In this document: piece after piece, positions 1-20,000 of the stretch | How positions within the stretch are numbered: the stretch's first letter is position 1 | Layout of the letters: every line of letters begins with the position of its first letter | Assembly (NCBI GenBank): GCA_021432655.1 | Contig: MU271363.1 | Location: 62,414 to 82,413 of the forward strand | Length of the DNA stretch: 20,000 nt | Origin: Atractiella rhizophila | Taxonomy: Eukaryota | Direction: 5' to 3' | Translations under genes and position numbers: made by a program | The notes under the pieces: model-generated | The model's database searches: none | Seen by the model: only the letters and a program-made list of their open reading frames with translations | Told to the model about the DNA's origin: nothing

Positions 1-493
1 ATGACATTTGGATGGTTGTCCCCAGACCTGTGGATGGGATGCTTGATTCCTCCCATTCACTGAGAGGAACGAAACACTCTTCCTCCTTGTAGTATACAGC
101 AATAGGTTCGAAGAGGGCCTCAGAGTGATTATCTGGAAGATGAAAAATGTATGTGAAGGGCTTCATGTCCAGGTGGTCCAAATCCACTGATGCATGATGT
201 TTGGTATCCCTGAAAGTTACCTTAATACTTTCTTCCTCCAAAGTGATGCAAAGATTGACTCTGCCGTCAGTCTCGACTGCATTTTCTAGATCTTCCACAG
301 AGAAGTAGGATGATTTCGACGGCCCATATTCGAACCTCCAGAATCGAATAGGTAAGACAAATGTGATCCGGAGCTTTCGAATTGATGAAGGTAGGTGAGC
401 AAGAAAAGAGGGAAGAATGGAGAGATGGATCGGACTGCCATGTTGTAATGTTCCTGGGGTGAGGAGATGGAGCAGTGCGATAGACTCTTTCCC
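1..493 (-). CDS. F-box/LRR family paralogue 1, 5' part of the main exon (runs off the window start)
   Basis: Not in the ORF track because no stop lies inside the window. Manual translation is open from 493 to 1: GKESIALLHLLTPGTLQHGSPIHLSILPSFLAHLPSSIRKLRITFVLPIRFWRFEYGPSKSSYFSVEDLENAVETDGRVNLCITLEEESIKVTFRDTKHHASVDLDHLDMKPFTYIFHLPDNHSEALFEPIAVYYKEEECFVPLSEWEESSIPSTGLGTTIQMS. It is collinear with paralogues 2 and 3. The boundary at 493 is an inferred splice acceptor. Confidence 0.85.
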
Positions 494-612
494 CTGACCG
501 TCCTTGCATAAAATCGATGATTTTCTTTTTTTCACTCTGGGAGATAACACGATGTACTAATGCCCACGAACACACATTAAACAAGACAAGAGCGGAACAG
601 ATAAGGTCATGC

Positions 613-690
613 CTGCATCGCATCTGTGCATTGTTCAACTCGAACCACCTCAACATTCTCTGGGGAATGATCAGGCCGATCAGGCATCAT
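613..690 (-). CDS. Putative first exon of paralogue 1 (MMPDRPDHSPENVEVVRVEQCTDAMQ)
   Basis: ATG-initiated micro-ORF conserved upstream of all three paralogues with frame-preserving indels. It ends CAG|GCATGA, a possible GC donor. Confidence 0.45.
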
Positions 691-1059
691 CGTGAGGATG
701 GAAATCGCAAAGCCGTTCGTGGGAGTCGATGTTTAGGCGGCCGTTTGGGACAGATGAGGATGGAGTTGGGTGGAAGTGGGCGGCCGGACGTTGAAGGCTT
801 TAGTTCTCTCGCAGTTAACTACCAGATAGTGCCACGGGAAATCCCAAAATATGTGAAAGAACTGAAATCCTTTGCAATACTAGTACCTAAATTACCCTGC
901 AAATCAAACGAGAGCTAGTGTAGAACACTCTGATATTAATGCTTCGTTCCGTAATGATCTGATTGTGAGAGGGAAGGCTAGATGTGGCTGGGATATTTAG
1001 GGAGGGCAGTTAGCAATCAGGATGACAGAGGAGGCAGAGGAAGCCACGTGCGAGAAGAT

Positions 1060-3345: not shown

Positions 3346-3379
3346 GTGAGATGTTCGTAGTTTCGGGGAGAAGGACTAA

Positions 3380-5030
3380 CCGAAAACTTGTTCGCTTTCG
3401 CTCTCACAGATCACATTCGCGACGCGGCGCGTTACCAATGCGCAAGATCTCACGAGACACCACTGGAGAATTCACGCAAGGGCGTCTGTGGTCCCGTCTT
3501 CCGCTAATGGCAAGATCGCAGGTATCATCGTCAAGAGATGCTATCGTCTTGGGTCACGAACTGCCAGCGTAGTCGATGCTGGTACGTCTCCACGTCTCCT
3601 TCCCGCCTCTCATCCACTTGCTAAAGAAAATGAACATCGTCTGGCCCAAAGTCACACACCGCAAGAAGGGAGATCACGTCGCACTTGAGCCTGGAGAGAG
3701 AGAGAGGCTCTTATGACTGTTACGACTGCAAGGCAGGAAGGTATGAGCTATGCCCTTCCATCAAGTTCGCTGCTAGCCCTCCTTTCGTCCGTCATTCCTC
3801 TTCCTTCCGTTCGCTCTGTGGCACATGTTTGGGTGCTAACTGCATTGGACGGCAGGACGGAACCCTCCAAGGGTTCTACAACCTGAGGCGACTGTACGAC
3901 CTCTCCCTCTCCTCTACTCCTCTTTCCGATTGCGACTTATCACGTCTGTGCTGGAAGCGCCTGCAAACTTCAGGATGTGCGTCCGATTCCCTGTGCTCCA
4001 TGGATTATCTATTGTACGAAACCCACTGGATGGAACATTTCCCTCAAAGAAGGATGGTCGGGTCGCTCTCTCTGGCTGCCCAAGCGTGGCACGTATCAGT
4101 AAATGAAAGCTGCATTAAACGTCGCCATCTGTGGGTTCGTTTCCCTCCCCCCACTACTACTCCTTTGTCTTGTTGAATAAAGAATAATAACGTTGTTGTG
4201 AAGAGCTCGTCCCTTTGGACTCTTCTCACACTCAGTCGCGAGATGCTAGAAAGACATTCACTGTCGAAATCCAAGAGCGTAAGCTGTCTTTCGCGAACTG
4301 GTATGTAGGGTTGGAGACTTTTGATCGTCCGAAAGTGCGTCCGAATCTCACCTCTCGTATGCGTGTTCTGTCTTACCTTCCTTGTTTTCATGTGGCGGGT
4401 TCGTGATCGCGGTTTAGCGGAGGCGGGAGAGTAGAGGATTGGCTGTCGGAGGAGGTTCTCCATGATCGTGAAGGAGGAGTTCAGGGTTGCAGACAGGGGA
4501 TTGGATGGTATCCACCTGGGCCGCAGACTTCATGGGGCTGAGGTCCGTTTCTCCATCACTCCCGTTCTGCACTTTTGGATATTGGTGTATCGATGCACGA
4601 ATGAGAACAAGCGCGCACCCAGACCGCCCTCCATCTTGTCGAGGAAGGCAGAATGTGGCCCGGGCCGGAATGGGTACGAGTTCGTTCAAGCTCCCATCAC
4701 CGTCATCCTCATGAAGGAAGGCTCCTTTCGCTCCTTCTGTTGCTTCTCCTTCTACTGCTTGCACGCATTTCCGAAGCTTCCGGGTTGGTTATTGATTTGC
4801 GTGATAGATAAGGGCCAAGAGAGTTGAGCCAGTGATTGATCTGGTTGCTAGGGCTCTTGTCGACTTGAAGTCGCTCGAAATACAGCGCTACAAGTTCAAA
4901 GATTACAACTCGCGCCTCGAAGACAATGCAGGCTCATCTCCCGTGTTCTCTTCCGCCTCGATGTCACAAAGTTGAAAATCTGGTGATGATGGTTCGCTCT
5001 ATGGGACACGAAGGGACAGGATGTGGGGGG
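3380..5030 (+). pseudogene. Xylitol/sorbitol dehydrogenase (Zn-dependent MDR family) pseudogene, copy 1, near full length
   Basis: Ordered fragments: GVCG (3481), NGKIAGIIVK/IVLGHE, PKVTHRKKGDHVALEPG, CYDCKAGRYELCPSIKFAASPPF, intron 3787-3855 (GTCCGT..GCTAAC..CAG), DGTLQGFY, VEIQERKLSFAN, YEFVQAPITVILMKEGSFR, IDLVARALVDLKSLEIQRYKFKD. These match the known motif order of fungal polyol dehydrogenases, with several frameshifts. Confidence 0.9.
3694..3706 (+). repeat. (GA)6G microsatellite frameshifting dehydrogenase copy 1 after EPG
   Basis: gagagagagagag here, whereas copies 3 and 4 have only gagag at the equivalent site. Confidence 0.75.
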
Positions 5031-5039
5031 AGAACTTAG

Positions 5040-7215
5040 ATGACACTTGAGTCAGTAGCGGGAGATAAGAGGGATGAATGACAGAGGCTACGGAGCACGA
5101 GAGGGACCGACCTAGATGTCCACTTGTGGTCCTGATCCATCACTGCCCACATTTCTCTCCACTTTGTCCGTGAGTCATCTCTTTTTTGACCTCGACGTCA
5201 CGCAGCAAGCAGCGGTGGAAAGAGAGCCATGGAGTGCGATCCGGAGTGCGACAGAAGTTGTAGGATGAGGTGGGAGAGAGAATACGAGGGAGGGCGGCAG
5301 CATGGAACACAGGAGGGCATAGGACGCTGAGGGGTGACGAGGTGGCGCGGACGGTTGTGAACGACTCCGACATTCCATTTTGATCATCGGCCCTTGTCAC
5401 TTCTATGCTCCCCTTTCGCTATCCTACGTCCAATTCCAGTCGACCCCCAGTCGACGTTCCGAGCCCTCAGGAGCGTGGTGGAGGCAGGCTTGACGGATGT
5501 TCGAGTGCGACAGGGGGAGGATGAGATTAGGGCAAAAGGGAGCGGCGCAGCAAGGGGAGTACTACACATGTCAGTTAGGACAATTGTAGCAGGGAGAGAG
5601 AGATGGAGGGAGAAAGAGAATATACTGCTGACAAAAAAGAAAGTCCCTCCGAGGCCAGAATTGCGAAAAAGGTGCAAGGGTTGGTGGAGAGGGAAATGAA
5701 GATGAACGTTCGCAGAGAGGGGATGGGAGGTGGAATGAAAGGGTAAGTGACGCGAAAGGAGATGGCTAAGGTCAAAAGGAGGGGGAGAAACGCTTGGACG
5801 GTCATTCTCGCGTCCTTCAGCCATCACCGACCCAAATCATCCCCTCTATCCACGTTTTCGCCATTTGCGTGCCTCTCGTGCTACTGGGTTGATTTTAGAT
5901 GCCCATTATGCGAGAGAGGGTGGAAGGGCTTAGCGAGGAACGGTTCTCCAAGGCGATGGTGGACAGCGAGAAAAGGGGCGAGGAGGCGCAAGACAGCGGC
6001 ACGAATCGGGGGATGGGCGAATGACCCCATTTGCGCGGCAGTCCACCCATCACACGTTCGTGCTACACTTTACGGTTGATTTCCGATGTCTATGGTGCAG
6101 CAAGTTGGTTAGAATCGAGGGACGGCTTGGGGATGTTGGAGAGCGAGGTATGCCGAGAGAGCAACACTAGGTGAGAGAAAGTGTACCATGCCTCTTCGAT
6201 GCTCATTCTCAATTCCCAACCCAAACTGTCACCTCCTTCGTCTGCTTTGGCGATCCGCGTCCAACTATCACGCGCCGTTCATTTCTGAGTGCACAGTGGT
6301 TGCTGGAGGAGTGGAGAACGATGGACGACGAGAGGAACATGGAGGTAAATGGAGAGGGATCCTGGAAGGAGAGCGACAGGGGAGGGTTACGGCAAAACGG
6401 AAAGTGGGATAGCGGTATTGAGTTGATGCAGAACGGTGCTCCTGCATGTCTCCTTTCGCCTCCAACGCTTTCCTCGCGCTGCTCTCTCGCCTGGTGGCCC
6501 CAGCAGCGAAGGTAAGTAGGGATGCTGGGAGGGTCGCGCAGTGCTGAGGCGGGATGGGGCCACAGGAGGGAGAGGGTAAGGAGCGTCCTTGGTGAGGGGG
6601 CGAGGAAGCTGTTCCCGTTGTCATTAAGCACAGATGCAAAAGAGGAAGAGGAGTAGGATGCATATCAGCCTCTCTTTCGCCCCTCCTCGCTCGTTCTTCC
6701 CCTCCATTGCACATCGCGTGCCTCCTTTCTTGTGCTATGCCGTCCTCAGGCTCACTTTCACTGGACATCAGATAACAGTGCTGGCTCTTCCTTTTCAGTC
6801 AGTGTTGTATCTCATGGTCTCGTGCGTCGCCCTCCCTTTCCATCTCTGCCACTCGTAACCTACCTTTACGTACCATTTTGTTCACAATGCATCCCACTTC
6901 CCCTCCCATCTTCTCACTGATTGTACACGTCCATTCATCACTTGCTCACACCAGGGCTGCCGACTACATCGGCCGTCGCGTGTGGGGAGGCACATGAGCA
7001 AAGAAGGACGATGGAGGTTAGCTGTAGTGGAAAGGAATGTGGAGGAGGGCGAGCCAGAGGGGATGGCGAAGGAGGGTGAAAGAGGAGAGGGGCACCAGAA
7101 CCAGCCAGAGTGAAGGAGACCAGGGACGGATGAGAGCACGCGAGATCGCGAGAGGTGAAGCCTGTGAGAAAGCAGCGAACTGAAAGCGGGAATGCCAGGA
7201 ACGACGGCGGAGATA
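5040..7215. repeat. Intergenic block R, copy B (most diverged; no adjacent F-box gene)
   Basis: gatgacacttgagtcagtagcg at 5040 and collinear anchors to ~7215. It directly abuts the 3' end of dehydrogenase copy 1. Confidence 0.85.
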
Positions 7216-7673
7216 CCATAGCCAGCGATAGAAGGTGGCTGCAGATTCACCCTTATCCTGGCGATCGTAGAAAATCATTCAACACCATAGCACTTTCCGT
7301 GCAACGATCTACCCGAAGAAAAGCATCGCGATTTACGCCTCCCCACCGCAGTTGACATTCTTAGGCGGACTATTCTATGGATGGAGTTGACAGGAATGAG
7401 GCTGAGAGGAGGTTGATCAACGACGCCCATTTGTGTGTTCTTCTTTAGTTCTTGAAGCAAATTTTCAGGGGAAGCGTTGAGTATACTGCGATATGTTGAG
7501 AATGGTGCTGAGAACCCCCCAAAGTAGAATTGCTACCAGAGACCTTATGCACGGACTTGTTCGTTGGAGGATCTTTTCTGTCGGACACTTGCATCCACGC
7601 ACCAATCTCATGCCGAACTACACCACGTCTGAGAAGGAGGTGACAGCTAAGGCGTGGATGGAGGCCAGCTGGA

Positions 7674-8300
7674 TCGCAGACTTTGGTTCCTTCCAAACGT
7701 GCGTCCCACTGTTACCTTGCTGACCTGCATTTTGTCTTATTTTTGCTTATGGTGCGTTTTGTTTATGTTTAGCAGAGGTGTAATTGTGCTTTCAAGGAGG
7801 ATAGGGGATAGGGGGGTTCTGAAGGAGAAGCTCAAGGTTGCAGATGGGGATTGGAGGTATTCTCCTGGCTGTATATTGCATGGGGGCTGAGGTCCGTTTC
7901 TCCATCCTTCTTCCTTTGCTGCGCTTTTAGGTATTGGTGTACTAATACTGATGCACGGAATGAGAACAGGCGTGCATCCTGACCGTGCTCCACATATGAG
8001 AAGGATAACAGAATGTACAGGTGGGGATGGGCAATGATTCCCGCCAAGAGCTCATCACCGCCATCGTCAAGGCAGAAGTGACTATCAATGGTTCCTTCCA
8101 GTCCATCCTCCCTCGTACTTCCTGCGCATGACCAGTTAGCGAGCACGCATCGCTAGGGACCATGTAGGCCTGAAGCCGCCCACTACTCATTGCTACAAGT
8201 CCAAGATGCAATCCACGAATTAAGACCGCTCAGGTTCGTCTCTCCCTGTTCCTGTGATTGTCCTAAAGTTGACACTGGGTTATGTAAATGGGTAGAGAGA
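7674..8300 (+). pseudogene. Xylitol/sorbitol dehydrogenase pseudogene, copy 2 (3' part only)
   Basis: tcgcagactttggttcc followed by a GTGCGT donor, then GIGGILLAVYCMGAE|GTCCGT, VGMGND..ITAIVKAEVTINGSFQ and RIARDHVGLKPPTTHCYK. Collinear with 4310-4990. Confidence 0.8.
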
Positions 8301-8309
8301 TGAGATGAT

Positions 8310-9485
8310 TTCAAGAAGACCCCCATCGCCCTCGAGCGCGGAGAGTCATGTAGGACGTGCTACAACTCCAATGCGGGAAGGTAGGAGTTCTGTCCCTTCA
8401 TCGAATTCCCCGCTACCTTTTCTTCCGTGAGCTTGCCTCTTCCTTCTCTCTCCTTTTCGTGGTACACAACTTCGTGCTGACTCGATTGGTTGGCAGGGCG
8501 GAAGCTGCGAGGCTACAGACTACGGCGAGACCTGTACATTATTTCCATACCCCTCCGCTCTCCAAACGCTGCCTTATCGTGTCCGTGATCACAAAACCTC
8601 CAGATTTCCAGATGCCTTCCAAGCCCTCTACTCTCGTCGAATATATCTCATAACAGACTGCTGGTGTTTGACAGAATGTCTCCCTAGCAGAAGGGTTCGA
8701 TGAGCGAATCGCTCTCTGTGGCCGTTCAAAGCCTAGCACGTATCGGAGAATGAAAGCGGAGTCGAAGTTTGAACGTTACCTTGGTCCGGTTCGTCTCCCT
8801 TTCTCCTCTTCCTCCTGTACCCTTCGAATGAAAACTAATAACGCGTTGACTTGTGTTGTGAACAGCCGATCCGAGAGTGCTACTCGCACAGGCAGTCGCG
8901 AAGCCGTTAGGTACTGGAAGGATAAAGCTGTCGATATTCACGAGCGTAGGCTAACTTTCGCGAACAAGTGCGTGTCGCAGACTTTCGTTCCTCCAATGTG
9001 TGTCGACCTCTAGCCTCTCTCATGCACGTTTTGTCTTACGTTTCTGTTCCTTTACGGGAACAGGCGTGCATTCAGACTGTCTAACTTTTCAAGGACGGCG
9101 GAAAGTAAGTCTAAGTGGGAATGGGCACCGAGTTCGTTCTAGGTGCTGCCATCCTCACGAATGAGGTGGCCGTCAAAGGTTCTTCCGGTCCGTTCTCCCT
9201 CCTATGTTTTGTTCTATAACTTTGTTCTGACGCTTCGTTTATTTGCGCCGATGAATATAGACCGGGTGTTATGAAGAGACTGATTTGGTTGCTAGCGGCC
9301 TCTTAGACTGGCTGAGCCGCTCTTCACATTACTTCAAGTTTAGAGATGCAATTCGCGCCTTTAAGACAATACAGGCTCGCCTCCTCGCTTCTTTTCGCCT
9401 TGATCTGACAAAACTGAAATCTGACGATGATGCTTTGCTCTAAGACGGGGAGGACGAGTTCGAAAGCGTCATCGACGGATAGGTC
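8310..9485 (+). pseudogene. Xylitol/sorbitol dehydrogenase pseudogene, copy 3 (lacks N-terminus and one internal exon)
   Basis: Fragments IALERGESCRTCYNSNAGR*EFCPFIEFPAT, NVSLAEG/SLSVAVQSLARIG, VLLAQAVAKPLGTGRI/AVDIHERRLTFANKCVSQTFVPP, ACIQTV*LFKDGGK*V*VGMGTEFV..AILTNEVAVKGS, DLVASGLLD and HYFKFRDAIRAFKTIQA, with several in-frame stops. Confidence 0.88.
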
Positions 9486-9559
9486 AACGATTGAACTTTG
9501 TAGCGACATGAATGCAACTCTCTGGGCTATTAAGGAAATGAAGGAACAAAAAGTTGGGA

Positions 9560-9700
9560 TCTCTGCTACTACAAGGGGTTCAAGGGATGGTACCATTGTT
9601 GTACCACATCTTCAATCTTCGACGGCAGCCCCATCTGTTCTCTTAAGTAGTCCGTTGTCGAAATGCCAGAGTTGTTGTCAACCGTAAGAACAACTCAAGG
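9560..9700 (-). pseudogene. Decayed exon of an unknown gene downstream of F-box paralogue 2
   Basis: VVLTVDNNSGISTTDYLREQMGLPSKIEDVVQQWYHPLNPL** aligns with the same frame at 16582-16752. Confidence 0.35.
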
Positions 9701-10291
9701 GCTCTAAGGGTGAATCCGCTTCTTTACATCATGGCACTTATCGAATGAACTTGATGTCCTAACTGCTTTTACAAAGAATCAGCAGAATTGTTTGCAGGAC
9801 AGAGGACATCCATAATACACACAGAGAGCGTCCTCCTCACAAACCCGACCTTTTCAGGGCCTGAAGCCTCCGAAATAATCATCAACAGCAATTCTACTCC
9901 TTCCCATCCAGTGTCTTCATTGCCCGCATCCCTAGTTTCCAGATCCCCCAAGAACCCGCAGATAAACACTAGGAAACTGACTCACCCCCCGCAGTACGAA
10001 ATAGCTATGACCTTTACAGCATTGTGTGCTAATATTGTGCATAGAAAGACTTGAAGATTGCTCATAACCATCAAGTACGAGGTGTCGAGTATGACGGAGT
10101 GACTTTTGTGAGGAGCGGTATGTTGCATAAAGGGTGGAGGGATGGAGGGATGGTGTTGTTCCGAATAAATTCCAGCCCTGTCCCTAGTCACCCAAATTCA
10201 ATGCTGTGTGTTAGATGAAGAGCGATACGAAATGCACACCTTCTCCTCGTGTCTTCTCTAGAACACAGATGAAATTTGAGTACCTCCAGCA

Positions 10292-11971
10292 TCACTCCTC
10301 ACCTCCCTCCCGAATCCAGGTACTTTGAATATACTCGCTCACACCAAACTCTCTCAATGTGCTACTAGCCTTGCATATCTCTTCCTCAAGCCAGCCTCCA
10401 AAGAATAGCTGAACCCTCAACTCGCGTCCTCTCGTCGACTTCACCTTTTCAGCACCATCCACCATATCCCCCTCCTCCTTCATCCCCCTGTCCCCAAAGA
10501 ACCAGCAGATGAAGTCTGAGAATACGAACCCTGTGAATTCCCAGTCCACCACACAGTACCGAACCTCTACACGATCTATCGCTTTTGCATTTGTGAGGGT
10601 GTGGAAGAACGCGGGGGAAACAAGGTTTGAAGTTTCCTCACCACCGTCGAGGCGGAGTAGGGTGAGATGTTTGAGGTGTGATAGATCGAGTGGACTAGGT
10701 AGCATGGAGGTCTTTCCAGAAGGCGAGTAGGGGGCGAGCTTGATCTCGGGATGTTTTAGCAGAGGTGGCAGACAGCAGCCTGAGACGGAGGGAGGGAGGG
10801 GACACAGGTTGGAGAGAATCAGCCATGTGAGGGAGAGTGGGAGGGGGAGCGATGGGAGAGGCGGGTATGTGTGAAGCCATAGACTTTTGAGGCCAGATGA
10901 TAATTGAAGGCCTGGTGATGTCGACGAGACAGAGTCCTCCACGTCGCAAGCACTGAAGGTTCTGATCCTGTCACCCATCCTCTGCGTGAAATTCTCGACC
11001 TCAGCCTTCTTCCACTTTCTCAAACCTAGCTCTCCAAAGGTTACGGAATCCAACTTCCTCAAGCCTTCAATCGCATGCAACAAAATCTTCGCCTCCTCTT
11101 CATTCCAAATTGCATTCATTCTCACTAAAGTAACCTTCGGCGAGCCAGCGATGACGTCTTTCGCCATCTCAACGCTGATGTCATTGTCAGGCTGTTTGAT
11201 AAACCAAAGGGATGTCCGCAAATGCCCAGCATTAGGATACGATGTCAAACGAGCATGCAACTCCTTCACAGAAACCTCTTCACTGAAATATGGGACTGAA
11301 ACAGCCTTCCAAAGCTGACAGACGGCAGAAAGTCGCTCGAAGGAAACGAGATATCCAGTACCTTCTATCAGGCTTTCAGATTCATCGAATGAAAGAAACT
11401 CGAAGATGAGTGAGAGGATCTCAGTTGGAAGGTGCGTGATACTGCATAATCTAGTACCTGTAGATCGAGTTGTGGAGAGGGAGAGTTGGATGGTTATCCC
11501 CAGACCGGTGGATGGGATGGTTGATTCCTCCCATTCGCTGAGAGGAATGAAACGGTGTTGCTTCTCGGAGTATAGGGCAACGGGTTCAAAGAGGACCTGA
11601 GAGCGGTTATCTGGAAGATGAAAAGTGCATGTGAAGGGCTTCCGAGACGGGTCCTCCATATCCACGGATGCACGATGTTTGGAATCCCCCAAAGCTGCCG
11701 TAATACTTTCCTCCCCCAAAGTCATGGAAAGGTTCAATGTGTCGTCGCAATCGACTGCATCTTCGAGACCTTCCAGAGAGAAGTAGGACAATTTTGACGG
11801 CCCAACTTCGAACCTCCACAATCGAAGGGGTAAGACCAACGTGATGTGGAGCGTTTGAATAGATGAAGGTAGGCAAGCAAGGAAAGATGGAAGAATGGAG
11901 AGACGTAGCGGACTGCCACGTCGTAAGGTTACTGGGGTAATGAGATGGACCAGTGCGATAGACTCTGTCCC
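10292..11971 (-). CDS. F-box/LRR family paralogue 2, main exon (ORF-track 10292..12115, 607 aa)
   Basis: Long uninterrupted ORF with an F-box-like motif ITHLPTEILSLIFEFL...LSAVCQLWKAVS followed by ~10 LxxLxL-type repeats. It is about 73% identical to paralogue 3 by manual count. The ORF-track start is TTG and the 5' part is probably intronic. Confidence 0.9.
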   Translation of the reverse strand, partial: GTESIALVHLITPVTLRRGSPLRLSILPSFLACLPSSIQTLHITLVLPLRLWRFEVGPSKLSYFSLEGLEDAVDCDDTLNLSMTLGEESITAALGDSKHRASVDMEDPSRKPFTCTFHLPDNRSQVLFEPVALYSEKQHRFIPLSEWEESTIPSTGLGITIQLSLSTTRSTGTRLCSITHLPTEILSLIFEFLSFDESESLIEGTGYLVSFERLSAVCQLWKAVSVPYFSEEVSVKELHARLTSYPNAGHLRTSLWFIKQPDNDISVEMAKDVIAGSPKVTLVRMNAIWNEEEAKILLHAIEGLRKLDSVTFGELGLRKWKKAEVENFTQRMGDRIRTFSACDVEDSVSSTSPGLQLSSGLKSLWLHTYPPLPSLPLPLSLTWLILSNLCPLPPSVSGCCLPPLLKHPEIKLAPYSPSGKTSMLPSPLDLSHLKHLTLLRLDGGEETSNLVSPAFFHTLTNAKAIDRVEVRYCVVDWEFTGFVFSDFICWFFGDRGMKEEGDMVDGAEKVKSTRGRELRVQLFFGGWLEEEICKASSTLREFGVSEYIQSTWIREGGEE

Positions 11972-12089
11972 CTGTCCATCCTTGCGTAAAATCGATGATT
12001 TTCGTTTTTTCACTTTGGGAGATACACACTGGACTAGAGCCCACAAATGCACATTAAACGAGACAACAGGGGGAGAGATCAGATCATGC

Positions 12090-12164
12090 CTGCAGCGCAT
12101 CAGTGCATTGTCCAACTTGAACCATCTCGACGTTCTCCACGCAAGGATCTGGCTGATCAGATAT
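12090..12164 (-). CDS. Putative first exon of paralogue 2 (ISDQPDPCVENVEMVQVGQCTDALQ; first ATG is ATA here, next ATG at 12125)
   Basis: Homologous to 613-690 and 19086-19142 and ends CAG|GCATGA. Confidence 0.4.
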
Positions 12165-12489
12165 CACCAATCGTGAAGATGAAGATCGCATAACCGTTCG
12201 TGGGAGTCGATAGATTAGGCGACCGTTTGCAATTAGGATGGTGTTGGGTGGAAGTAGGCGTCCGGACGTTGAAGGCTTTGGTTCTCTGGCACTGGACTAC
12301 CAGATAGTGTGATCGGAAATCCTAAAATATGTAAAAGAACTGAAATCCTTTGCAATCCTAGTACCTCAATCACACTGCAATTCAAATCAGAGCTAGAGGA
12401 GAGCGCTCTGGTATTGATACTCCGTCCGTAATGATATAATTGTGGGAGGGAAAGCTGAGACAGTTAGGAAGGGCCACTTGCGAGGACAT

Positions 12490-14765
12490 AGATGACATTT
12501 GAGTCAAGACGGGAAACAAGAGGGATGGAGGGCTGAGGCTTAGGAGCACGAGAGCGGCCGACCTAGGCGTCCGCTTGTGGTCCCTGATCCAACACTGCCT
12601 ACATAGCTCTCCTCTTTTCCATCAACCATTTCATTGGTGACCTCCATGCACGAAGCAAGCGTCGGTCGACGGTGATCCATGTAGTGCGAGCCGGAGGGCG
12701 ACAGAAGTTGGAGAATGGGATGGGAGAGAGAATAGGATCGAGGCGGTATAGAACAGAGAGGCATAGAACGGCGACGAGTGAGAGCAGGGGTGAGAAGGAA
12801 CTCGTGAGGCGTCCCTCTGACATCCTACGCCGATTATCGGCCTCCCCCTTCGCTATTCGACTTCCAACCTTCAGTCCACGTTGGACTTCCGAGCTTTCAC
12901 GGAGCTTTCACGGGCTCAGTGGAGGGGTGAGAGACGGTGGAGTGTGAGAGGAGGTAGAGTAAGTGTAGCAGGAAATGGAGCCGCGGAGCAAGGGACCTAG
13001 TGGGCATGTCAGTTAGGACACTTGTAGCAGGGAGAGAGGAAGGGAGAAACGGAATACACTGCAACCAGAACGGAATGCCCCGACGAGGTCAGAACGTGAA
13101 AAAAGGCGGAAGAGTTGGGGGAATGCGGAATGAAGGATGAACCTTGGCGGAGAGGGATGCGAGGTGGAGTGAGAGGGTAAGTGAGGCGAAAGGAGATGGC
13201 GGGGTGGAAAAGGAGCGAGAGAGACGCTGGACGGTCATTCTCCCGTCCTTCTGCGATCGTCCGCCGAACTCGTTCGCTCTTTCCAGAATTTTTGTCACTT
13301 GATAAACCCGTCGCTCTCTGGGTTGATTTTAGATTACAAAGATGATTGAGAAGCTGGACGAGCGATGGTGGAGTGGGAATGCGTTGCTTATGCAATGGTG
13401 GAGAGTTGGCGAAAGACGGTGGCACGACTGGGGGATGGGCGAATGGGCGACGAAGTCTTTCCGTCCTCCTTTTTCACCTCAACTGCGCCGCAATCCAGTT
13501 CTTTGGCCATCACAAGCCACCACTACGCTTCGTGGTTGATTTCGGATGTCTAGGACGAAACAAAGTTGGCTACAGGTGAGGGACGGCGGAAACGTGTTTG
13601 AATAATGTTGGAGAGGTGACACGAGAGATTAGCGGTAGCTTAGAGAAAGCATCCCATGTCTCTCCCATATCCATCGTAATGTTCCACCTGCTGTGTCACT
13701 TTCGTTCTCTGCTTTCGCGATCCGACTTTCAACTTGGCCTTGGCGTTCATTTCGGACGGCATAGAGGTTACTGGAGGGACAAAGGATGATGAGTGGCGAG
13801 AGGAGCACACAGGTGAGGAGAGAGAGACGTCGTAGCGAGAGAATCAACGCGAGGGGGTTACGGGAAGCGGGATAGGTCGGAAGGGGTATTGAGACGGGTG
13901 CAGGATGGCGCTCACTGGGCTCCCGCGTCACCTTTTGCGTCCCGCACTTCCCTCGCACTGCTCTCTTGCTTCGTAGCCTCAGCAGCGAAGGTAAGTAGGG
14001 ACACTGGGAGCGTCGAGCAGTGCTGAAGCGTGAAAGGGCTGCAGGAGGCAGAGTGGCGATGGGTGTGCAGGGTGAGTAGGCGAGGAACCTAATCCTTATG
14101 TCAATAAGCGCAATTGCAAAAAGAGGGAGAAGGGAGGGGAAGGTCACCTCTTTCTCTGGTAACTCTTTGTACTGTATAGGGCCTTTTAACCCTCCCTTGA
14201 TCCAACCATGGGCCCTGTTTCCCACTCTTTTTCGCTCCTTCTTGCCCTGCACTGCCGATCGATTACTTGCTGCTCACACTCTCTTTCGCTGGTTAGCAGT
14301 CCAGGCACTTCCTTTCGGTCAATGCCGTCCGTCATGGTGTCGTGTCGTGCTTTGCTCTCCCTTTCCATCTTTGTCATACTTCACCTTCCATTACGACCCA
14401 TTCTGTTCACAATGCATCTTGAGATCTTCCCTTCCTTCCTCTCGCTGCTTGTCCTTGTCCATTCATCACTTGCTCACACCAGTGCAACCGACTACATCAT
14501 CCTTCGCGTGTGGGAAGGGCACATGAGCAAAAGCGGGCGGTGGAAGGTAGCTACGGCTAAAGAGAATGTGGAGGATAGCGGAGCTGAAGGATGCCGGAGT
14601 AGGCTGAAACAGGAGAGGGACATCAATCCAACCAGAGCGAAGGAGATTGTGGACGGATTGGACGACGCGAAAGAGGTGAGGCGGAGTGGATGACTGCATG
14701 ACAGCTCAGAGCGGGAAGGAGGGAAGACGGCGGAGGGACGGCGGAAGACGTGAGGCACAGCGGTG
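12490..14765. repeat. Intergenic block R, copy C
   Basis: Closely collinear with copy A; for example 14190-14480 versus 2752-3060 share long identical runs. Confidence 0.93.
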
Positions 14766-14809
14766 TGAGATGAGACGTCCCGGTGCGGTTTGTAGTTTCG
14801 GAGGAGGAC

Positions 14810-16535
14810 GAACCGAAAACTCGTTCGCTTTCGCTTTCACCGGTCACATTCGCGACGCGGCGCGTTCCGAATATTGAATGCGCAAGATCTCACCACAGCC
14901 GTCTGTCATCCTTTTCTTCCTGTGCCCAACTTGCAACTCAAATGATGGAAGCAGGATCCACGCAGAGGCGTCTGTGATTCCGACGTCCGCGAATGGGAAG
15001 ATCATGGATTTCAGCGTCAAAGTAGCTATGGTCTATGGTCTTGAGTCATGAAACTGCCTGCGTAGTCGCTCTCCGTTTCTACCTCTCCCCGCTGCCCGTC
15101 TCTCATCCTCTTGCTAAGAAAATGAACATTGTTTGGCCCAAAGTCAAACATCTCAAGAAGGGGAGATCGCGTCGCACTTTAGCCCGGAGAGTGACTTTTA
15201 GGACATCTTACGACTGCACAGCGGCAAGGCATGAGCTATGCCTTCCATCAAGTTCGCCGCTACCCTTCCTTTGTGAGTTTTTCCCATTCTTTTGTCCTCT
15301 TTGTGGTACATGTTTGGGTGCTAACCGCATTGGATGACAGGAGGAACTCTTGAAGGGTTCTAGAAGTTCCGAGACGACCTGTACGACAGCTCCTCTCGTC
15401 TACTCATCTCCCCGATCGCTCACTTATCGTTTCTGTGCTGGAAAGCGCCTACAAACTTCAGGATGTGTGTTCCATTCCCTCTACTCCCATGGAATATCTT
15501 GATTAACGAAACCGAATGGATAGAACGTTTCCCTAAGAGGAGAAGTGATGGCCGGACCGCTCTCCGTGGCAGTCCAAAGTGTGGCACGTGGTAGTCGACC
15601 AAAGCTGGGTTGAACGTCGCCATCTGCGGCTTCGTCTTCCTCCCCCTTCTTCTGCTCTACCGGCAAAAGGAAAATACCAATGGTGTTGTGAAGAGCCGAG
15701 CTAGTAGGAGTAGGAGTCCTCGCACAGGCAGTCAGGAAGGCGTTAGCGCGGTAGAAGGAGAATCGCCGTCGACAGTCATGAGCGGCAGGCTGGCTTCGCA
15801 TATGTATGTGGAATCAGAGACTTTCATGTCCCAAACATGCGTCCAACTCTAACATCTCTTATGCATGGCTTGTCTCACGTTTACGTTTCCTTTGCCCGCC
15901 GTGTTTTGCATTTGTGGTTTAGTGAAGGAGGGAGAGCAGAGGATAGCGTACTCGAGGAAGACGACGGGGATCATGAAGGAGGAGTTCAAGGTTGCATACT
16001 AGGGATTGGAGGGTATCGACCTCCACGTAGACTGCATGGGGGCGAGGTGCGTGTGTCCTTGCTTTCCATCCGACATTTTGAAGATTGATGTACTGATAGT
16101 GATAGATGGACGAGAACAGACGTGCATTCAGGCCGTCTACCTTGTGACCCAAGCCGGAATAGGCAACGAGTTCGTCCCGGCGCCGATCACTGCCATCCTC
16201 ACGAAGGATGTGACCGTCAACAGTTTTTCCAGGTCAGACCTCCCTTCTACCTCTTGCACTATAACTTTGTTCTGACGCTTCGTACTTATTGATTTGCTCA
16301 AGGAATACGAACCAGGTGTTAGGAGCAAGCATTAGGGGGCTCGTAGCCTGCTGAGATGCTCATCACACATCGCTTTATATTCAAAAATGCAACCCGCGCT
16401 TTTAGGACCGCTCAGGTTCGTCTCTCCCTTCTCCTGTGATGTTCTGAGGTTGACACTGGGTGATGCAAGTTTCTAGGAAGCGAAGGCAGAGGATGAAGAG
16501 AACGCAATCACGAGCATGCGTGACGGATACAACGA
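14810..16535 (+). pseudogene. Xylitol/sorbitol dehydrogenase pseudogene, copy 4, near full length
   Basis: Fragments GVCDSDV (14967), NGKIMDFSVKVAMV[7-nt duplication ctatggt]LSHETACVV, PKVKHLKKG, YDCTAARHELC, intron 15273-15340 (GTGAGT..GCTAAC..CAG), EGIDLHVDCMGA and TCIQAVYLVTQAGIGNEFVPAPITAILTKDVTVNSF. Frameshifted, with GHE changed to SHE. Confidence 0.9.
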
Positions 16536-16581
16536 TGACTGAACCTCAAAGAATGCTTAAATGGAACTCTTTGGACAAAGA

Positions 16582-16752
16582 TTAAGGAATGAAGGACAAC
16601 AAGATGGGAACTTTGTACTTCGACAAGGGGCTGAAGGAATTCCATTGTCGGCATTGTTGTACCACGTCTTCGACCTCCGACGGCAGATCCTTCTGTTCCC
16701 CCAATTAGTCCATCGTCGGAACGCAAGAGTCATCGTCAACGGTGAGAACAGC
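16582..16752 (-). pseudogene. Decayed exon of an unknown gene downstream of F-box paralogue 3
   Basis: AVLTVDDDSCVPTMD*LGEQKDLPSEVEDVVQQCRQWNSFSPLSKYKVPILLSFIP*. An acceptor-like gctgatt(c/t)..tgtaaaag lies upstream in both copies. Confidence 0.35.
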
Positions 16753-17293
16753 TTAAGCAAGACCCCACATTGTGACACTCTCGAGGCGGAATTTGATATC
16801 TTAAACCTTTTACAGGGAATCAGCAGAATTGTTTGCATAAAAGTAGACACCCGTGATACACAGCAAGCATCCCCCTCACGAATCCCCTCATACCTATTCA
16901 AGGAACTAAATAATCCTTCCCCCCTGCTCCCCATCCATCATTGTCCATATCCCGCTTCCATAAACTTTGGGAAACCGAATCACTCTGGGCAGTAGGACAT
17001 AGGAAACTTTAACCACATTGGGCTCTAACGGTGCGTGCAGAAGGATTTGGTGCGAACAGGGTTGGGCGAATGTGGTTGAAGATTCCTTGCAACCGTCGAG
17101 CGTGAGGTGTCGGGCATGAGGGAGGAGAGAGATGTGACATCTGATACGATGAATCGCGTTGGGGGATGGATGATCGACGCCGTCCTATACAAATCCCTAT
17201 CATTTGAATTCTGTGTCCAATAGAGAGAGATACGAACTCCACACCTTCTCGTGTCTTCCCTAGACCATGAGTCAAATCTGAGAATCTCCAGCA

Positions 17294-18964
17294 TCACTCC
17301 TCCCCTCCCTCTCGAACCCATGTGAATTTGTCCTCCTCGTCTACAAACTCACTCAACGTGCTCCTTGCCTTGCATATCTCTTCCTCAAGCCAGCCTCCAA
17401 AGAATAGCTGAACCCTCAACCAGCGTCCTCTGGTCGTCTTCACCTTTTCAGCTCCATCTGTCGTATCCCCCTCCTCCTTCACCCCCCTGTCCCCAAAGAA
17501 CCAGCAGATGAACTCTGAGAATACGAACCCTGTGAATCCCCAGTCCACCACACAATACCGAACATCTATGATTTCTATCGCTTTTGCATTTCTTAGGGTG
17601 TGGAAGAACTGGGGGGAAACGAGGCTCGAAGTTTCCTCACCACCGTCGAGTTCGAGGTAGCTGAGATGTTTGAGGTGTGAAAAGTCGAGTTGACTGGGTA
17701 GGATGGAGGTCTTTCCATCAGGCGAGTAGGGGGCGAGGGTGATCTTGAGCCTATCTAGAAGAGGCGGTAGACAGGAACCTGAGACGGAGGGGGGGAGGGG
17801 ACACAGGTTGGAGAGATACAAATCCGTGAGGGTGAGTGGGAGAGAGAGCAATGGGAGAGACGGGTATGTGTGAAGCTCTAGTACTTTGAGGTCAGATGAT
17901 AATTGAAGGCCTGGGGATGTCGACGAGGCAGAGTCCTCGACGTCGAAAGCACGCAAGGTTCTGGTCCTGTCGCCCATCCTCCGTGTAAAACTCTCGACCT
18001 CATCCTTCTTCCACTTTCTCCAACCTTGCTCTCCAAACATTACGTCATCCAACCTCGTCAAGCTTTCAATCGCATGCAACACAATCTTCGCCTCCTCTTC
18101 ATTCCAAATTGCGTCCAAGTACACATTCGTGACATTTGGCGAGCCAGCGATGACGTCTTTCGCCATCTCGACGCTGATGTCATCGTTCCCACTGTCAAAC
18201 AAGAGATATGTACACAAATGCCCAGTATTAGGATAAGCCTTCAAGCGAGCATGCATCTCCTTCGTAGAAACATGTCTACTCAAATATGGGGCTGAAACAG
18301 ATTCCCAAAGCTGACTGACGTCAGAAAGTCGCTCGAAGGCAACAAGATATCCAGTATCTCCTGTGTTTGGAGATTCATCGAATGAAAGAAACTTGAAAAT
18401 GAGTGAGAGGATCTCAGGAGGAAGGTGTGTGATACTGCATAAACTAATACCTGTAGGTTGAGTTGTGGAGAGGGAGAGTTGGATGGTTGTCCCCAGACCG
18501 GTGGATGGGATGGTTGATTCCTCCCATTTGCTGAGAGGAATGAAACAGTTTGTCTCCTCGGAGTATAGGGCAGCGGGTTCAAAGAGGACCTGAGAGCGGT
18601 TATCTGGAAGATGAAAAGTGCATGTGACGGGCTTCTGAGACAGGTCCTCCATATCCACGGATGCAAGATGTTTGGCATCCCCAAAAGTCACCGCAATACC
18701 TTCCTCCTCCAACGCGACGCAAAGAATCACTGCACCGTCAGTTTCAACTTCATTTTCGAGACTTGCCAGGGAGAAGTAGGAAGATTTCGACGGCCCATAC
18801 TTGCGCTTCCAGAATCGAATAGGTAAGACAAATGTGATCCGGAGAATGTGAATTGATGAAGGTAGGCGAGAAAGGAAAGAGGGGAGAATGGAGAGGTGGA
18901 TCGGAGTGCCATGTCGTAATGTTACTGGAGTGATGAGATGGACCAGTGCGATTGCCTCTGTTCC
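17294..18964 (-). CDS. F-box/LRR family paralogue 3, main exon (ORF-track 17294..19006, 570 aa)
   Basis: Long uninterrupted ORF with F-box-like ITHLPPEILSLIFKFL...LSDVSQLWESVS and LRR-like repeats. Indels relative to paralogue 2 are whole codons. The ORF-track start is GTG. Confidence 0.9.
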   Translation of the reverse strand, partial: GTEAIALVHLITPVTLRHGTPIHLSILPSFLSRLPSSIHILRITFVLPIRFWKRKYGPSKSSYFSLASLENEVETDGAVILCVALEEEGIAVTFGDAKHLASVDMEDLSQKPVTCTFHLPDNRSQVLFEPAALYSEETNCFIPLSKWEESTIPSTGLGTTIQLSLSTTQPTGISLCSITHLPPEILSLIFKFLSFDESPNTGDTGYLVAFERLSDVSQLWESVSAPYLSRHVSTKEMHARLKAYPNTGHLCTYLLFDSGNDDISVEMAKDVIAGSPNVTNVYLDAIWNEEEAKIVLHAIESLTRLDDVMFGEQGWRKWKKDEVESFTRRMGDRTRTLRAFDVEDSASSTSPGLQLSSDLKVLELHTYPSLPLLSLPLTLTDLYLSNLCPLPPSVSGSCLPPLLDRLKITLAPYSPDGKTSILPSQLDFSHLKHLSYLELDGGEETSSLVSPQFFHTLRNAKAIEIIDVRYCVVDWGFTGFVFSEFICWFFGDRGVKEEGDTTDGAEKVKTTRGRWLRVQLFFGGWLEEEICKARSTLSEFVDEEDKFTWVREGGEE

Positions 18965-19085
18965 CTGATCATCCTCCCGTGAAATCAATGATTCCTTCTC
19001 TATCACCCCTGGAGAAGATACACAGGACTAAAGCCCACGAATTCATGTTAAACGAGACAAGTGAGGGGGAAAGGTCAGATCATGC

Positions 19086-19142
19086 CTGTAGCGCTTGTGC
19101 AACTTGAACCATCTCAACGTTCTCCGCGCAATGATCAGACAT
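19086..19142 (-). CDS. Putative first exon of paralogue 3 (MSDHCAENVEMVQVAQALQ)
   Basis: ATG at 19142. It has two 9-nt in-frame deletions relative to the other copies and ends CAG|GCATGA. Confidence 0.45.
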
Positions 19143-19529
19143 CACGATCGTGAGGGATGGAGATTGCAAAACCGATCGTGGGAGTCGGATTAGGCGACCG
19201 TTTGCAATTAGGACAGATTAGGATGATGTTGGGTGGAATAAGTCTGCGTCCGGACAATGAAGGCTTTAGTTCTCTAGCACTTGACTACCACATAGTGCCA
19301 CAGGAAATCCTAAAATATGTAAAAGAACTGATATCCTTTACAATACTAGTACCTAAATTACACTGCAATTCCAACGATAACTACAGCAGTACGCTCTGAT
19401 AATGATGCTTCGTTACCTAATGATCCGAATGCGAAAGGGAAGGCTAGATAGGGCTGGGAGAGATAGGGCAGTTAGCAACAGGATGGCAGATGGAGCGGAA
19501 GTCACTTGCATCTCAGCGAGAATATAGGC

Positions 19530-20000
19530 GATGTTCGAGTCAGTAGCGGAGGGCAAGAGGGACGGAGGGCAGAGGCTTAGGAGCATGACAGAGGGGCCGA
19601 CCTAGACATCCTCTTGTGGCTCCTGATCCAACACTGTCCTCAATACCCTCCTCTTTCTTCATCAGGTATTTCATGGTTGACCTTGATGTCACGAAGCAAG
19701 CGCCAGTGGAAGGTAATCCAAGGAGTGCGAGCCGGAATGGGGCGGAAGATGCAGGATGAGGTGGGAGAGAGAATAGCACGGCGGCATGGAACACGGGAGA
19801 GGCATAGCAGGTGAGAGATGCGAAGGAATGCGATCAGAGTGCGAAGAAAGTGCGACGCATCCCTCCGACATCCTCTTGTCACATACCCTCCCTGCTACCC
19901 GACATCCAACCTGCGTGAGGGGGTGGAGTGCAAGAGGACGTGGAGTGAGACTATCAGAAAAGGGGGCAGTGAAGGATCTAGTCTGCATGCCAGTCAGGAC
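19530..20000. repeat. Intergenic block R, copy D (partial; array continues past the window end)
   Basis: gagtcagtagcgg..gggcagaggcttaggagca..ccgacctag..cctgatccaacactg matches 1070-1570. Confidence 0.88.

Follow-up and report, generated by a model that had tools for sequence, protein, structure and literature searches.

The window, a 20,000-nucleotide stretch of contig MU271363.1 of Atractiella rhizophila, holds three paralogues, all on the minus strand, of which copies 2 and 3 are complete. In copy 3, exon 1 (19086..19142, minus strand) begins with an ATG and comprises 19 codons. It is followed by a GC..AG intron of 58 nt (GCATGA...CTTTAG; 19028..19085, minus strand), placed by the annotated 596-aa protein P0003, and by exon 2 (17294..19027, minus strand), which includes the stop codon and matches residues 20–596 of P0003 at 100%. 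The intron is skipped exactly in one contig of run X1, which we take as a weak hint because the shorter side of the joint has just 21 letters. Copy 2 consists of exon 1 (12090..12191), a 61-nt GC..AG intron (12029..12089) and exon 2 (10292..12028), all on the minus strand; its exon 2, stop codon included, is a single continuous ORF that can be aligned with copy 3 over its whole length, whereas the annotated P0016 omits a segment close to the 3′ end and finishes out of frame. Copy 1, part of the 609-aa P0014, leaves the window: exon 1 (613..690), a 56-nt GC..AG intron (557..612) and the 5′ part of exon 2 (2..556) were located, again on the minus strand. For the pairwise comparison, the ORFs at 10292-12115 (copy 2) and 17294-19006 (copy 3), both on the minus strand, were aligned with each other.

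Upstream of copy 2 lies a repeated spacer unit (12482..16885, no strand assigned), whose relatives were recovered by self-BLAST of the window at 1052-4718, 5030-9846 and 19537-19874 with 64–79% identity. Spliced joints were seen in this unit on contigs of run X1, and none of 40 spacer and flank ORFs selected throughout the window, some 14 of which lie in the unit, had a Pfam match. Judged by the self-alignment, the spacer unit is duplicated jointly with the genes, and the window is part of a tandem array of an F-box-like/LRR family.

Atractiella rhizophila is an inhabitant of plant roots, and we take it to be a Pucciniomycotina species. All 60 matches of the family profile came from this fungus, with members detectable in no other species by that search, and on these matches the gene family is private to A. 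rhizophila, where it numbers about 60 gene models or more. It is expanded and in part arranged in tandem, in keeping with the tandem F-box/LRR paralogues of the sequence-only reading, and its tree is star-like. Fragments and fusions (chimeric models) are numerous among its members, as expected under birth-and-death evolution that includes decay.

In the encoded protein, an N-terminal domain of ~190 aa precedes an F-box-like motif, which is followed by some ten irregular leucine-rich repeats. In copy 3, the N-terminal domain corresponds to P0003 residues 27–214 (18443..19006, minus strand); it has no Pfam match, gave nothing above chance in the Atlas search, and was modelled by AF2 with low confidence. 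The F-box-like region, which contains a variable insert, spans residues 215–283 (18236..18442, minus strand) and was recognized by PF12937 and by invariant residues. The LRR domain covers residues 284–580 (17345..18235, minus strand) and was assigned from model pLDDT, the match to FBXL17 and per-position variability; the aligned domain of copy 2 lies at 10346..11239 on the minus strand.

The C-terminal half is predicted to form an LRR solenoid, in line with the fold expected in the sequence-only reading. In the AF2 model, residues ~270–535 are confident (block pLDDT mostly 80–97) and form 10 strands in alternation with helices or loops. The best match in the VIA comparison was FBXL17, from a chain in complex with SKP1 (Z 17.4, 282 aligned residues, rmsd 4.2), followed by RanGAP (Z 17.0), FBXL2 (Z 16.9), ribonuclease inhibitor (Z 16.2) and NLRC4 (Z of about 16); many LRR chains matched model residues ~250–596 at Z 14–17.4. 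Among the 50 Foldseek matches listed, nearly all are LRR proteins going by their titles, including TIR1, COI1 and D3. Position 4 of the LxxLxL strands falls at P0003 residues 294, 321, 348, 377, 402, 422, 446, 477, 506 and 556, and the core positions 1, 4 and 6 hold 1–5 residue types in the family, with one or two types at 27 of 30, as against 3–11 types at positions 3 and 5. None of the Pfam LRR families matched any of the 38 members (E<=0.01), nor did a profile search of the PDB return an LRR chain at E<=10, its only match being an F-box at E 0.066; the LRR assignment thus rests on the predicted fold, that is, on a single AF2 model from a shallow single-species alignment.

The sole Pfam signal, F-box-like (PF12937), stays below its 24.3-bit cut-off in both complete copies, at 20.7 bits (E 3.5e-4) in copy 2 and at about 19.2–19.3 bits (E 9.4e-4 to 0.001) over residues 218–273 of copy 3. 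The F-box named in the sequence-only reading therefore falls short of the threshold in these two copies but is borne out at the level of the family, where 28 of the 38 members match F-box-like at E<=0.01 (best 5.8e-9), with further Pfam matches to F-box in 8 and to F-box_4 in 4. Residues L221, P222, E224, L226 and W260 are invariant in all 38 paralogues, while their neighbours vary. Pairwise omega between copies 2 and 3 over the F-box region (residues 215–283, the variable insert included) was 0.88, so constraint is not visible there. NACHT and NB-ARC gave no Pfam match in copies 2 and 3 at E<=1 or in the 38 members at E<=0.01, and a kinase domain was likewise not matched in either set.

It could be argued that these proteins are diversifying LRR binders that act without SCF, with a degenerate or repurposed F-box-like motif and an N-terminal domain that gives the output by signalling, sequestration or ribonuclease inhibitor-like inhibition. 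The sub-threshold scores would fit such a role, as would the insert that splits the motif, the pLDDT below 50 over the F-box region, and the RanGAP and ribonuclease inhibitor matches, which are LRR proteins without an F-box at equal Z. The motif also lies ~215 residues in, after the conserved N-terminal domain, and an F-box behind a long N-terminal domain is unusual among F-box proteins. However, LPxExL and the tryptophan are retained amid varying neighbours, more than two-thirds of the members are recognized as F-box-like, and the best structural match is itself an F-box LRR protein complexed with SKP1. We consider this alternative unlikely and regard the family as probable ubiquitin-ligase adaptors.

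The proteins of copies 2 and 3 are identical at 415 of 573 residues (72%), with 3 in-frame gaps, and their differences are concentrated on the predicted strands. Within residues 284–580, the two copies differ at 27 of 64 DSSP-strand residues compared with 41 of 233 others (Fisher p 6.9e-5). The contrast is sharper within the ten LxxLxL strands: positions 3 and 5 differ in 18 of 20 cases and residues elsewhere in 137 of 550 (p 3.5e-9), while core positions 1, 4 and 6 differ in 6 of 30. The clustering of changes on the strand x positions described in the sequence-only reading is thus reproduced, and all 10 strand pairs it quoted (LRTSLWFI/LCTYLLFD to GRELRV/GRWLRV), as well as its 7 identical stretches, were found in the alignment of the two ORFs. 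The span 10400..18230 given there runs from within the LRR of copy 2, through a spacer of ~5 kb, to the LRR start in copy 3; the coding parts relevant to strand variability are 10346-11239 and 17345-18235.

The same pattern recurs outside this pair. Among 18 other close paralogues, columns with at least 6 residue types are enriched in the DSSP strands of the model (20 of 64 strand columns versus 10 of 233 others; p 1.8e-8). A separate 15-member clade showed a mean of 7.0 residue types at positions 3 and 5, compared with 3.1 over the remaining domain positions (p 1.6e-11). Aromatic and charged types are abundant among the variable strand residues, and positions 2, 7 and 8 are variable to a lesser degree than 3 and 5. 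The ligand site of LRR proteins is usually the concave face, according to the portion of PMC3138743 drawn on here, and we place the variable residues on that face by combining the DSSP strands with the standard LRR geometry given there.

At the DNA level, the data come from one gene pair, the available coding DNA covering two copies in full and a third in part. At positions 3 and 5, pN between copies 2 and 3 reached 0.70 against a gene-wide pS of 0.196 (p 1.2e-12), about 3.6 times the synonymous value, and the upstream non-coding divergence was 23.5%. Residues differ at 90% of these positions, where 39–46% would be expected under neutrality, and codons differing at all three bases number 8 among these 20 but 6 among the other 550 (p 1.3e-9), or 40% versus a neutral expectation of 0.8–1.3%. 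When sites were classed by the other paralogues alone, omega was 1.4–1.7 at variable sites and 0.53–0.63 at the rest. Over the whole gene, dN/dS is below 1 (0.67–0.94 depending on the method). Inside the 20 hypervariable codons alone, dN/dS was 2.4 and not significant (p 0.19), and omega computed within hypervariable codons was likewise not significantly above 1 (p 0.09–0.33); significance arises only against gene-wide synonymous or non-coding divergence. The Leu-core codons between the variable ones have a pS of 0.13, a value that speaks against gene conversion as the source of the variable codons. Synonymous divergence varies along the gene (0 to 0.36), so the gene is not free of conversion or other heterogeneity. 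Substitutions between the two copies (140 transitions and 138 transversions) are symmetric in direction, with no RIP-like bias found among them.

A rival reading is genomic drift, put forward for plant F-box genes in the text of PMC3030570 available to us: duplication would be neutral, the strand residues merely unconstrained and not adaptively diversified, and most copies possibly functionless. The whole-gene ratio and the codon-local omega values are compatible with drift, as are the near-equal divergence of codon positions 1, 2 and 3 (15.3, 14.6 and 18.9%), the high omega of the N-terminal domain (0.83) and of the F-box region, the star-like tree, and the many fragments and chimeric models. 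Unconstrained sites, however, cannot exceed the neutral rate, so the above-neutral change at positions 3 and 5 speaks against drift, both in pN and in the proportions of replaced residues and of three-base codons. The scaffold is constrained, with an omega of 0.46 in the rest of the LRR and nearly invariant core residues. The frames are open, whereas among 5000 neutral simulations a single one was free of stops (mean 8.8 stops), and the coding alignment contains only its 3 in-frame gaps, compared with flanking stretches of ~700 nt with 13 gap events and of ~4 kb with 73. Selection keeps the reading frames open, and we judge drift quite unlikely. That the strand face of the LRR is under diversifying selection is well supported, since change there outpaces the neutral rate and recurs across the paralogues and in the separate clade.

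We favour, with some reserve, the view that these genes encode F-box/LRR SCF adaptors, private to the species, whose LRR face has been diversified by positive selection after tandem duplication. The F-box would dock the protein on Skp1/Cullin-1, making it the subunit by which an SCF ubiquitin ligase selects its substrate, and, going by the fold, the substrate would be bound by the concave β-sheet of the solenoid. New copies arise by duplication of units of ~7 kb (gene plus upstream spacer), as seen in the array. Positive selection then repeatedly swaps the exposed strand positions 3 and 5 and, less so, 2, 7 and 8, a replacement observed at the codon level in one pair and at the protein level across the family. 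Because exposed strand residues are replaced repeatedly, each paralogue would offer a binding surface of its own while the scaffold stays conserved. Obvious target candidates would be rapidly changing proteins, foreign or selfish.

The targets could instead lie in the plant: a root-dwelling fungus might deliver such proteins into root cells as effectors that hijack the host SCF, in an arms race with host targets, and a fast-evolving family limited to one species would suit this role. Ralstonia GALA proteins are F-box/LRR effectors with such logic, as far as the excerpt of PMC2244805 goes, but the annotated N-termini, inspected by eye, carry no hydrophobic signal-peptide-like stretch, and we regard an effector role as very unlikely.

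The non-self recognition system suggested by the sequence-only reading is a conjecture. Under it, dozens of F-box adaptors would give A. rhizophila a repertoire for recognition inside the cell, each tagging a different foreign or selfish protein for ubiquitylation, an idea that we put forward tentatively and with no great expectation. Mycovirus, transposon, endobacterial or competitor effector proteins would then be the targets, and the repertoire would be without described precedent in fungi, its concave LRR faces diversifying much as in plant resistance proteins. The signature itself is distinct: about two residues per repeat are replaced repeatedly, faster than neutral DNA, on a conserved scaffold, which leaves ~20–30 candidate contact residues and natural variants at hand. 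It raises the questions of why one fungus would need so many specificities and whether recognition by ubiquitin-ligase adaptors extends beyond nematodes and plants. Should drift or decay be the explanation, the family would still be a worked example of the reach of pairwise data.

Among known systems, the family shares with FBXL17, FBXL2, TIR1, COI1 and D3/MAX2 the predicted fold and the order of F-box followed by LRR, although Pfam LRR and PDB profile searches detected no sequence-level kinship. FBXL-type proteins are conserved single-copy regulators, whereas the Atractiella family is species-private and hypervariable. With plant LRR receptors and NLRs it shares variation at the solvent-exposed xxLxLxx residues, but it is without NB-ARC, NACHT or kinase domains, and its output would be ubiquitylation rather than oligomerisation or cell death.

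Also comparable are nematode and plant families of F-box adaptors, which are expanded and positively selected (Thomas 2006, as relayed in PMC8120010) and for which that source, in the passages used, presents an immune or conflict role as proposed and unproven. Like them, the Atractiella family is large, lineage-specific and mostly derived by tandem duplication, and combines a conserved F-box hallmark with a variable, here predicted, substrate-binding domain. Unlike them, it belongs to a basidiomycete, its variable domain is a predicted LRR solenoid in place of FTH, FBA or MATH, its F-box sits behind the ~190-aa N-terminal domain, and purifying selection on the F-box is not evident from the one pair compared. 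An expansion in Agaricomycetes (a 2019 study cited in PMC10282164) was discussed in relation to development, and the passages of that citing article describe no site-level pattern on an LRR face; the Atractiella family belongs to Pucciniomycotina instead.

Candidate fungal immune repertoires are few, and the NOD-like receptors of fungi, proposed as non-self sensors, carry hypervariable WD, ANK or TPR repeats, with LRR motifs reported absent in the available sections of PMC4986451. As described in those sections, they resemble the Atractiella family in their large, fast-evolving repeat repertoire and in positive selection on repeat surfaces. They differ in that the Atractiella proteins have predicted LRRs and no NOD domain, and in that near-identical, shuffling repeats are replaced here by variation between paralogues over a fixed count of degenerate repeats. 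If the recognition repertoire proved true, the family would be an LRR-based counterpart of these WD, ANK and TPR receptors, coupled to degradation instead of cell death.

The array in the window consists of three minus-strand paralogues (copies 1, 2 and 3), whose proteins are assigned to Atractiella rhizophila by database names. Copies 2 and 3 are complete: copy 2 has exon 2 at 10292–12028 and exon 1 at 12090–12191 (ORF and annotated model), and copy 3 has exon 2 at 17294–19027 and exon 1 at 19086–19142 (ORF and annotated protein). Copy 1 is represented by its 5′ part (exon 2 at 2–556, exon 1 at 613–690; ORF and annotated protein match). Copy 3 encodes exactly the annotated protein P0003 (596 aa), whose residue numbering is used below, and copy 1 encodes a portion of the 609-aa P0014. 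A predicted 3′ intron shortens P0016, the annotated model of copy 2, whereas the uninterrupted copy 2 ORF aligns with copy 3 end to end. At an equivalent place, all three genes carry an intron whose donor is the non-canonical GC (GCATGA...AG), at 557–612, 12029–12089 and 19028–19085. In each case this 56–61 nt GC..AG intron separates a short variable exon 1 from the main exon.

Self-comparison of the window revealed that the duplicated unit comprises a gene together with its upstream spacer: 10219–12826 matches 17224–19874 at 80%, 8–4718 matches 11486–16208 at 79%, and 5030–9846 is an additional, more diverged spacer copy. The ~4–5 kb spacer repeats (1052–4718, 5030–9846, 12482–16885 and 19537–19874) lie alongside the genes, with one geneless instance between copies 1 and 2, and are partly strongly purine-rich on the plus strand, with a GC skew of up to 0.28. 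None of 40 selected spacer ORFs of the window had a Pfam match, which argues against transposon cargo and is still compatible with non-autonomous elements.

Contigs of X1, a sequencing run of unrecorded type, span 29 of the 30 bins of 10200–19200; 61 of the 403 placed contigs fit two places, and their depth is unfit for ranking genes. Within the spacer, contigs skip short GT..AG stretches on the plus strand (15272 to 15341, 16044 to 16098/16104 and 16230 to 16301) and a CT..AC stretch on the minus strand (12994 to 13056). The shorter side spans 36 letters or more in each case apart from 16230 to 16301, which has 27; these joints may represent unannotated spliced transcripts or small genes. Immediately downstream of the copy 3 stop codon, a well-supported minus-strand joint, with 54 letters on its shorter side and a depth of 239, takes out a 60-nt CT..AC stretch at 17184–17243. 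This stretch is either an intron of the 3′ UTR or belongs to a different minus-strand transcript. The reading of an annotated relative, P0010, continues into the homologous region. The joint across the copy 3 intron has just 21 letters on one side and is a weak hint at most. One contig passes from 19000, within copy 3, back to 12090, where exon 1 of copy 2 starts, with 27 other letters between them, and probably stems from another paralogue or a chimeric assembly.

The window copies belong to a large family: 53 proteins were recovered by a single-sequence search, 56 by an exhaustive HMMER search over 1.84 billion cluster representatives, and 60 by a profile search. All named matches from the single-sequence and profile searches come from A. 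rhizophila, as do all nine representatives checked, including the four weakest matches of more than 300 residues; P0014, encoded in the window itself, is the one match that carries no species name. We regard the family as species-specific as far as sampling allows, a claim bounded by how many close relatives have sequenced genomes. Seven family models lie on the 82,413-base contig of the window and the rest are spread over many contigs; the family tree is star-like, and the window copies are not mutual nearest relatives. Fragments or fusions are numerous among the matches, as expected under birth-and-death evolution. On the same contig, P0004 fuses a full copy with a partial one; elsewhere, P0053 combines a RhoGAP domain with the N-terminal and F-box part of the family, P0055 pairs an F-box-like motif with a Pfam domain of TPR type, and P0067 (‘TPR-like protein’) carries the family LRR part at its C-terminus. 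These four may reflect domain shuffling or merged gene models.

The sole Pfam signal is F-box-like, sub-threshold in both complete copies (20.7 bits in copy 2 and 19.3 bits in copy 3, against a cut-off of 24.3). Across 38 aligned family members it is found in 28 at E ≤ 0.01 (best E 5.8e-9), and every one of the 38 keeps the LPxExL/W hallmark residues L221, P222, E224, L226 and W260, which supports the F-box proposed by the sequence-only reading. That reading had also proposed an LRR solenoid. Pfam LRR models match none of the 38 members, and a PDB search with the family sequence profile returned no LRR chain, only an F-box helicase (E 0.066). The proposal gains support from the predicted fold: an AlphaFold2 model computed from the alignment of the 38 sequences shows ten beta-strands interleaved with helices or loops in the C-terminal part, the only part modelled with confidence (block pLDDT mostly 80–97 over residues ~270–535; whole-protein mean 62). 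Nearly all of the 50 Foldseek matches listed are LRR proteins by title (E from about 5e-4 upward), and VIA, a second structure comparison, gave Z 17.4 against FBXL17 of an SKP1 complex (282 residues, rmsd 4.2), 16.9 against FBXL2, 17.0 against RanGAP, and about 16 against NLRC4 and ribonuclease inhibitor. Model quality is poor for the F-box region and for the N-terminal stretch of ~190 residues, and an Atlas structure and feature search with the N-terminal domain found nothing beyond chance (feature scores up to 0.80, structural TM by query up to 0.42). Diversifying binders of the same kind could also act in a non-SCF role; the sub-threshold F-box scores and poor F-box model leave room for this, the invariant hallmark and the resemblance to FBXL17 speak against it, and we consider it unlikely.

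Variation in the LRR domain is concentrated in the strands. Among 18 close paralogues, scored with the two window copies left out, columns with at least six residue types account for 20 of 64 model-strand residues versus 10 of 233 other domain residues (p 1.8e-8). Along each LxxLxL strand, conserved and variable positions alternate: the core (1, 4 and 6) is nearly invariant, and positions 3 and 5 carry 3–11 residue types, with W, Y, H, R, E, D and S abundant. A separate clade of 15 paralogues, 44–49% identical to copy 3, displays the same pattern, with a mean of 7.0 residue types at positions 3 and 5, 3.1 in the rest of the domain and 1.9 in the core (p 1.6e-11). In LRR proteins, according to the accessible text of PMC3138743, the strands build a concave face, where ligands usually bind, and the x residues in LxxLxLxx face the solvent. 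DSSP strands of the model and this standard geometry would place the variable residues on the concave face.

Copies 2 and 3, which contain every sequence string cited in the sequence-only reading, are 72% identical in protein (415/573) with three in-frame gaps, and show 278 differences over 1710 aligned coding bases. For this one gene pair, on which the DNA-level analysis is based, whole-gene dN/dS is 0.73 (NG86), 0.67 (LWL85), 0.94 (YN00) or 0.88 (ML), and codon positions 1, 2 and 3 differ by 15.3, 14.6 and 18.9%, so that the average looks nearly neutral. Only one in 5000 neutral simulations at the observed divergence remained stop-free (mean 8.8 stops), and the flanks are rich in gap events (13 in ~700 nt upstream, 73 in the ~4 kb spacer) compared with the three in-frame gaps of the coding alignment; the reading frames have therefore been maintained by selection, and the near-neutral average conceals a mixture of site classes. 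Open frames and in-frame gaps likewise argue against a pseudogene reading.

Over the ten strands, the two copies differ in 18 of the 20 residues at positions 3 and 5, where pN reaches 0.70 versus a gene-wide pS of 0.196 (Fisher p 1.2e-12) and an upstream non-coding divergence of 23.5%. Eight of these 20 codons have all three bases changed and another six have two, compared with 6 of 550 other codons changed at all three (p 1.3e-9); neutral expectation at 0.196–0.235 per site is 39–46% of residues altered and about 1% of codons changed at all three bases. The remainder of the LRR domain has an omega of 0.46. The variable codons are unlikely to have come from divergent paralogues through gene conversion, because the intervening core codons have a pS of only 0.13, and RIP-like mutation is rejected on the equal numbers of transitions and transversions and their symmetric directions. 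Pure drift, which as ‘genomic drift’ is the standing alternative for plant F-box genes (PMC3030570, in its accessible part), would suit the near-neutral average and the likewise fast F-box region (omega 0.88) and N-terminal domain (0.83). These two fast regions weaken the case for selection, as do two further results: omega within the variable codons is 2.4 for positions 3 and 5 alone and 1.4–1.7 for classes set from other paralogues, not significantly above 1 by either definition (p between 0.09 and 0.33), and synonymous divergence along the gene is uneven (0 to 0.36). The excess of change at the strand positions speaks against drift, which we judge improbable, and diversifying selection on the LRR strand positions is supported. 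The sequence-only reading is confirmed in what it observed and supported in part in what it proposed: the predicted fold, the F-box and diversifying selection have support, and a ligase role and non-self recognition are putative.

Two local features stand apart. Across about 60 codons of copy 3 (~18467–18646, residues 147–206), pS relative to copy 2 is zero and pN about 0.09–0.11, with pS of 0.24–0.36 in adjoining windows; this stretch contains a second hypervariable patch, ‘EETNC’, with 6–8 residue types. Two explanations would account for it: a recent conversion after which amino acids changed, or positive selection acting locally within the N-terminal domain. In copy 2, core position 4 of repeat 7 (LLKHPEIK, ~10748–10750) is a proline; copy 3 has a leucine (L446), and no more than two residue types occur there among the 18 further close paralogues. 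Because of this proline and the truncated P0016 model, copy 2 may be at the onset of decay.

Overall, gene-plus-spacer units have been duplicated, a scaffold with the F-box hallmark has been conserved, an LRR solenoid is predicted, and strand-face residues have been replaced well above the neutral rate. We favor, with reasonable though not strong confidence, a family of SCF adaptors with diversifying specificity, in which the F-box would dock onto Skp1/Cul1, the LRR face would bind substrates, and each paralogue would have its own specificity. That the targets are foreign or selfish proteins is our conjecture. Delivery of these proteins as effectors into a plant host is a further alternative, which we hold to be very improbable.

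As SCF adaptors, the A. rhizophila proteins would match the logic of the F-box families that have expanded in nematodes and plants and that, according to the accessible part of PMC8120010 (citing Thomas 2006), combine a conserved F-box with a positively selected substrate domain. Expansion and fast evolution of F-box genes are also described for mushroom-forming fungi in the available text of PMC10282164. The literature covered, which excludes most subscription journals, yielded nothing on A. rhizophila F-box proteins or a comparable fungal F-box/LRR family. Compared with known F-box expansions, this family differs in that its variable module is a predicted LRR with a plant-R-gene-like xxLxLxx pattern, an additional domain precedes the F-box, and relatives are detectable in one species only. 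Fungal NLR-like receptors reportedly carry WD, ANK and TPR repeats, with no LRRs reported in the accessible text of PMC4986451; to that extent, a hypervariable LRR repertoire is therefore unusual in a fungus.
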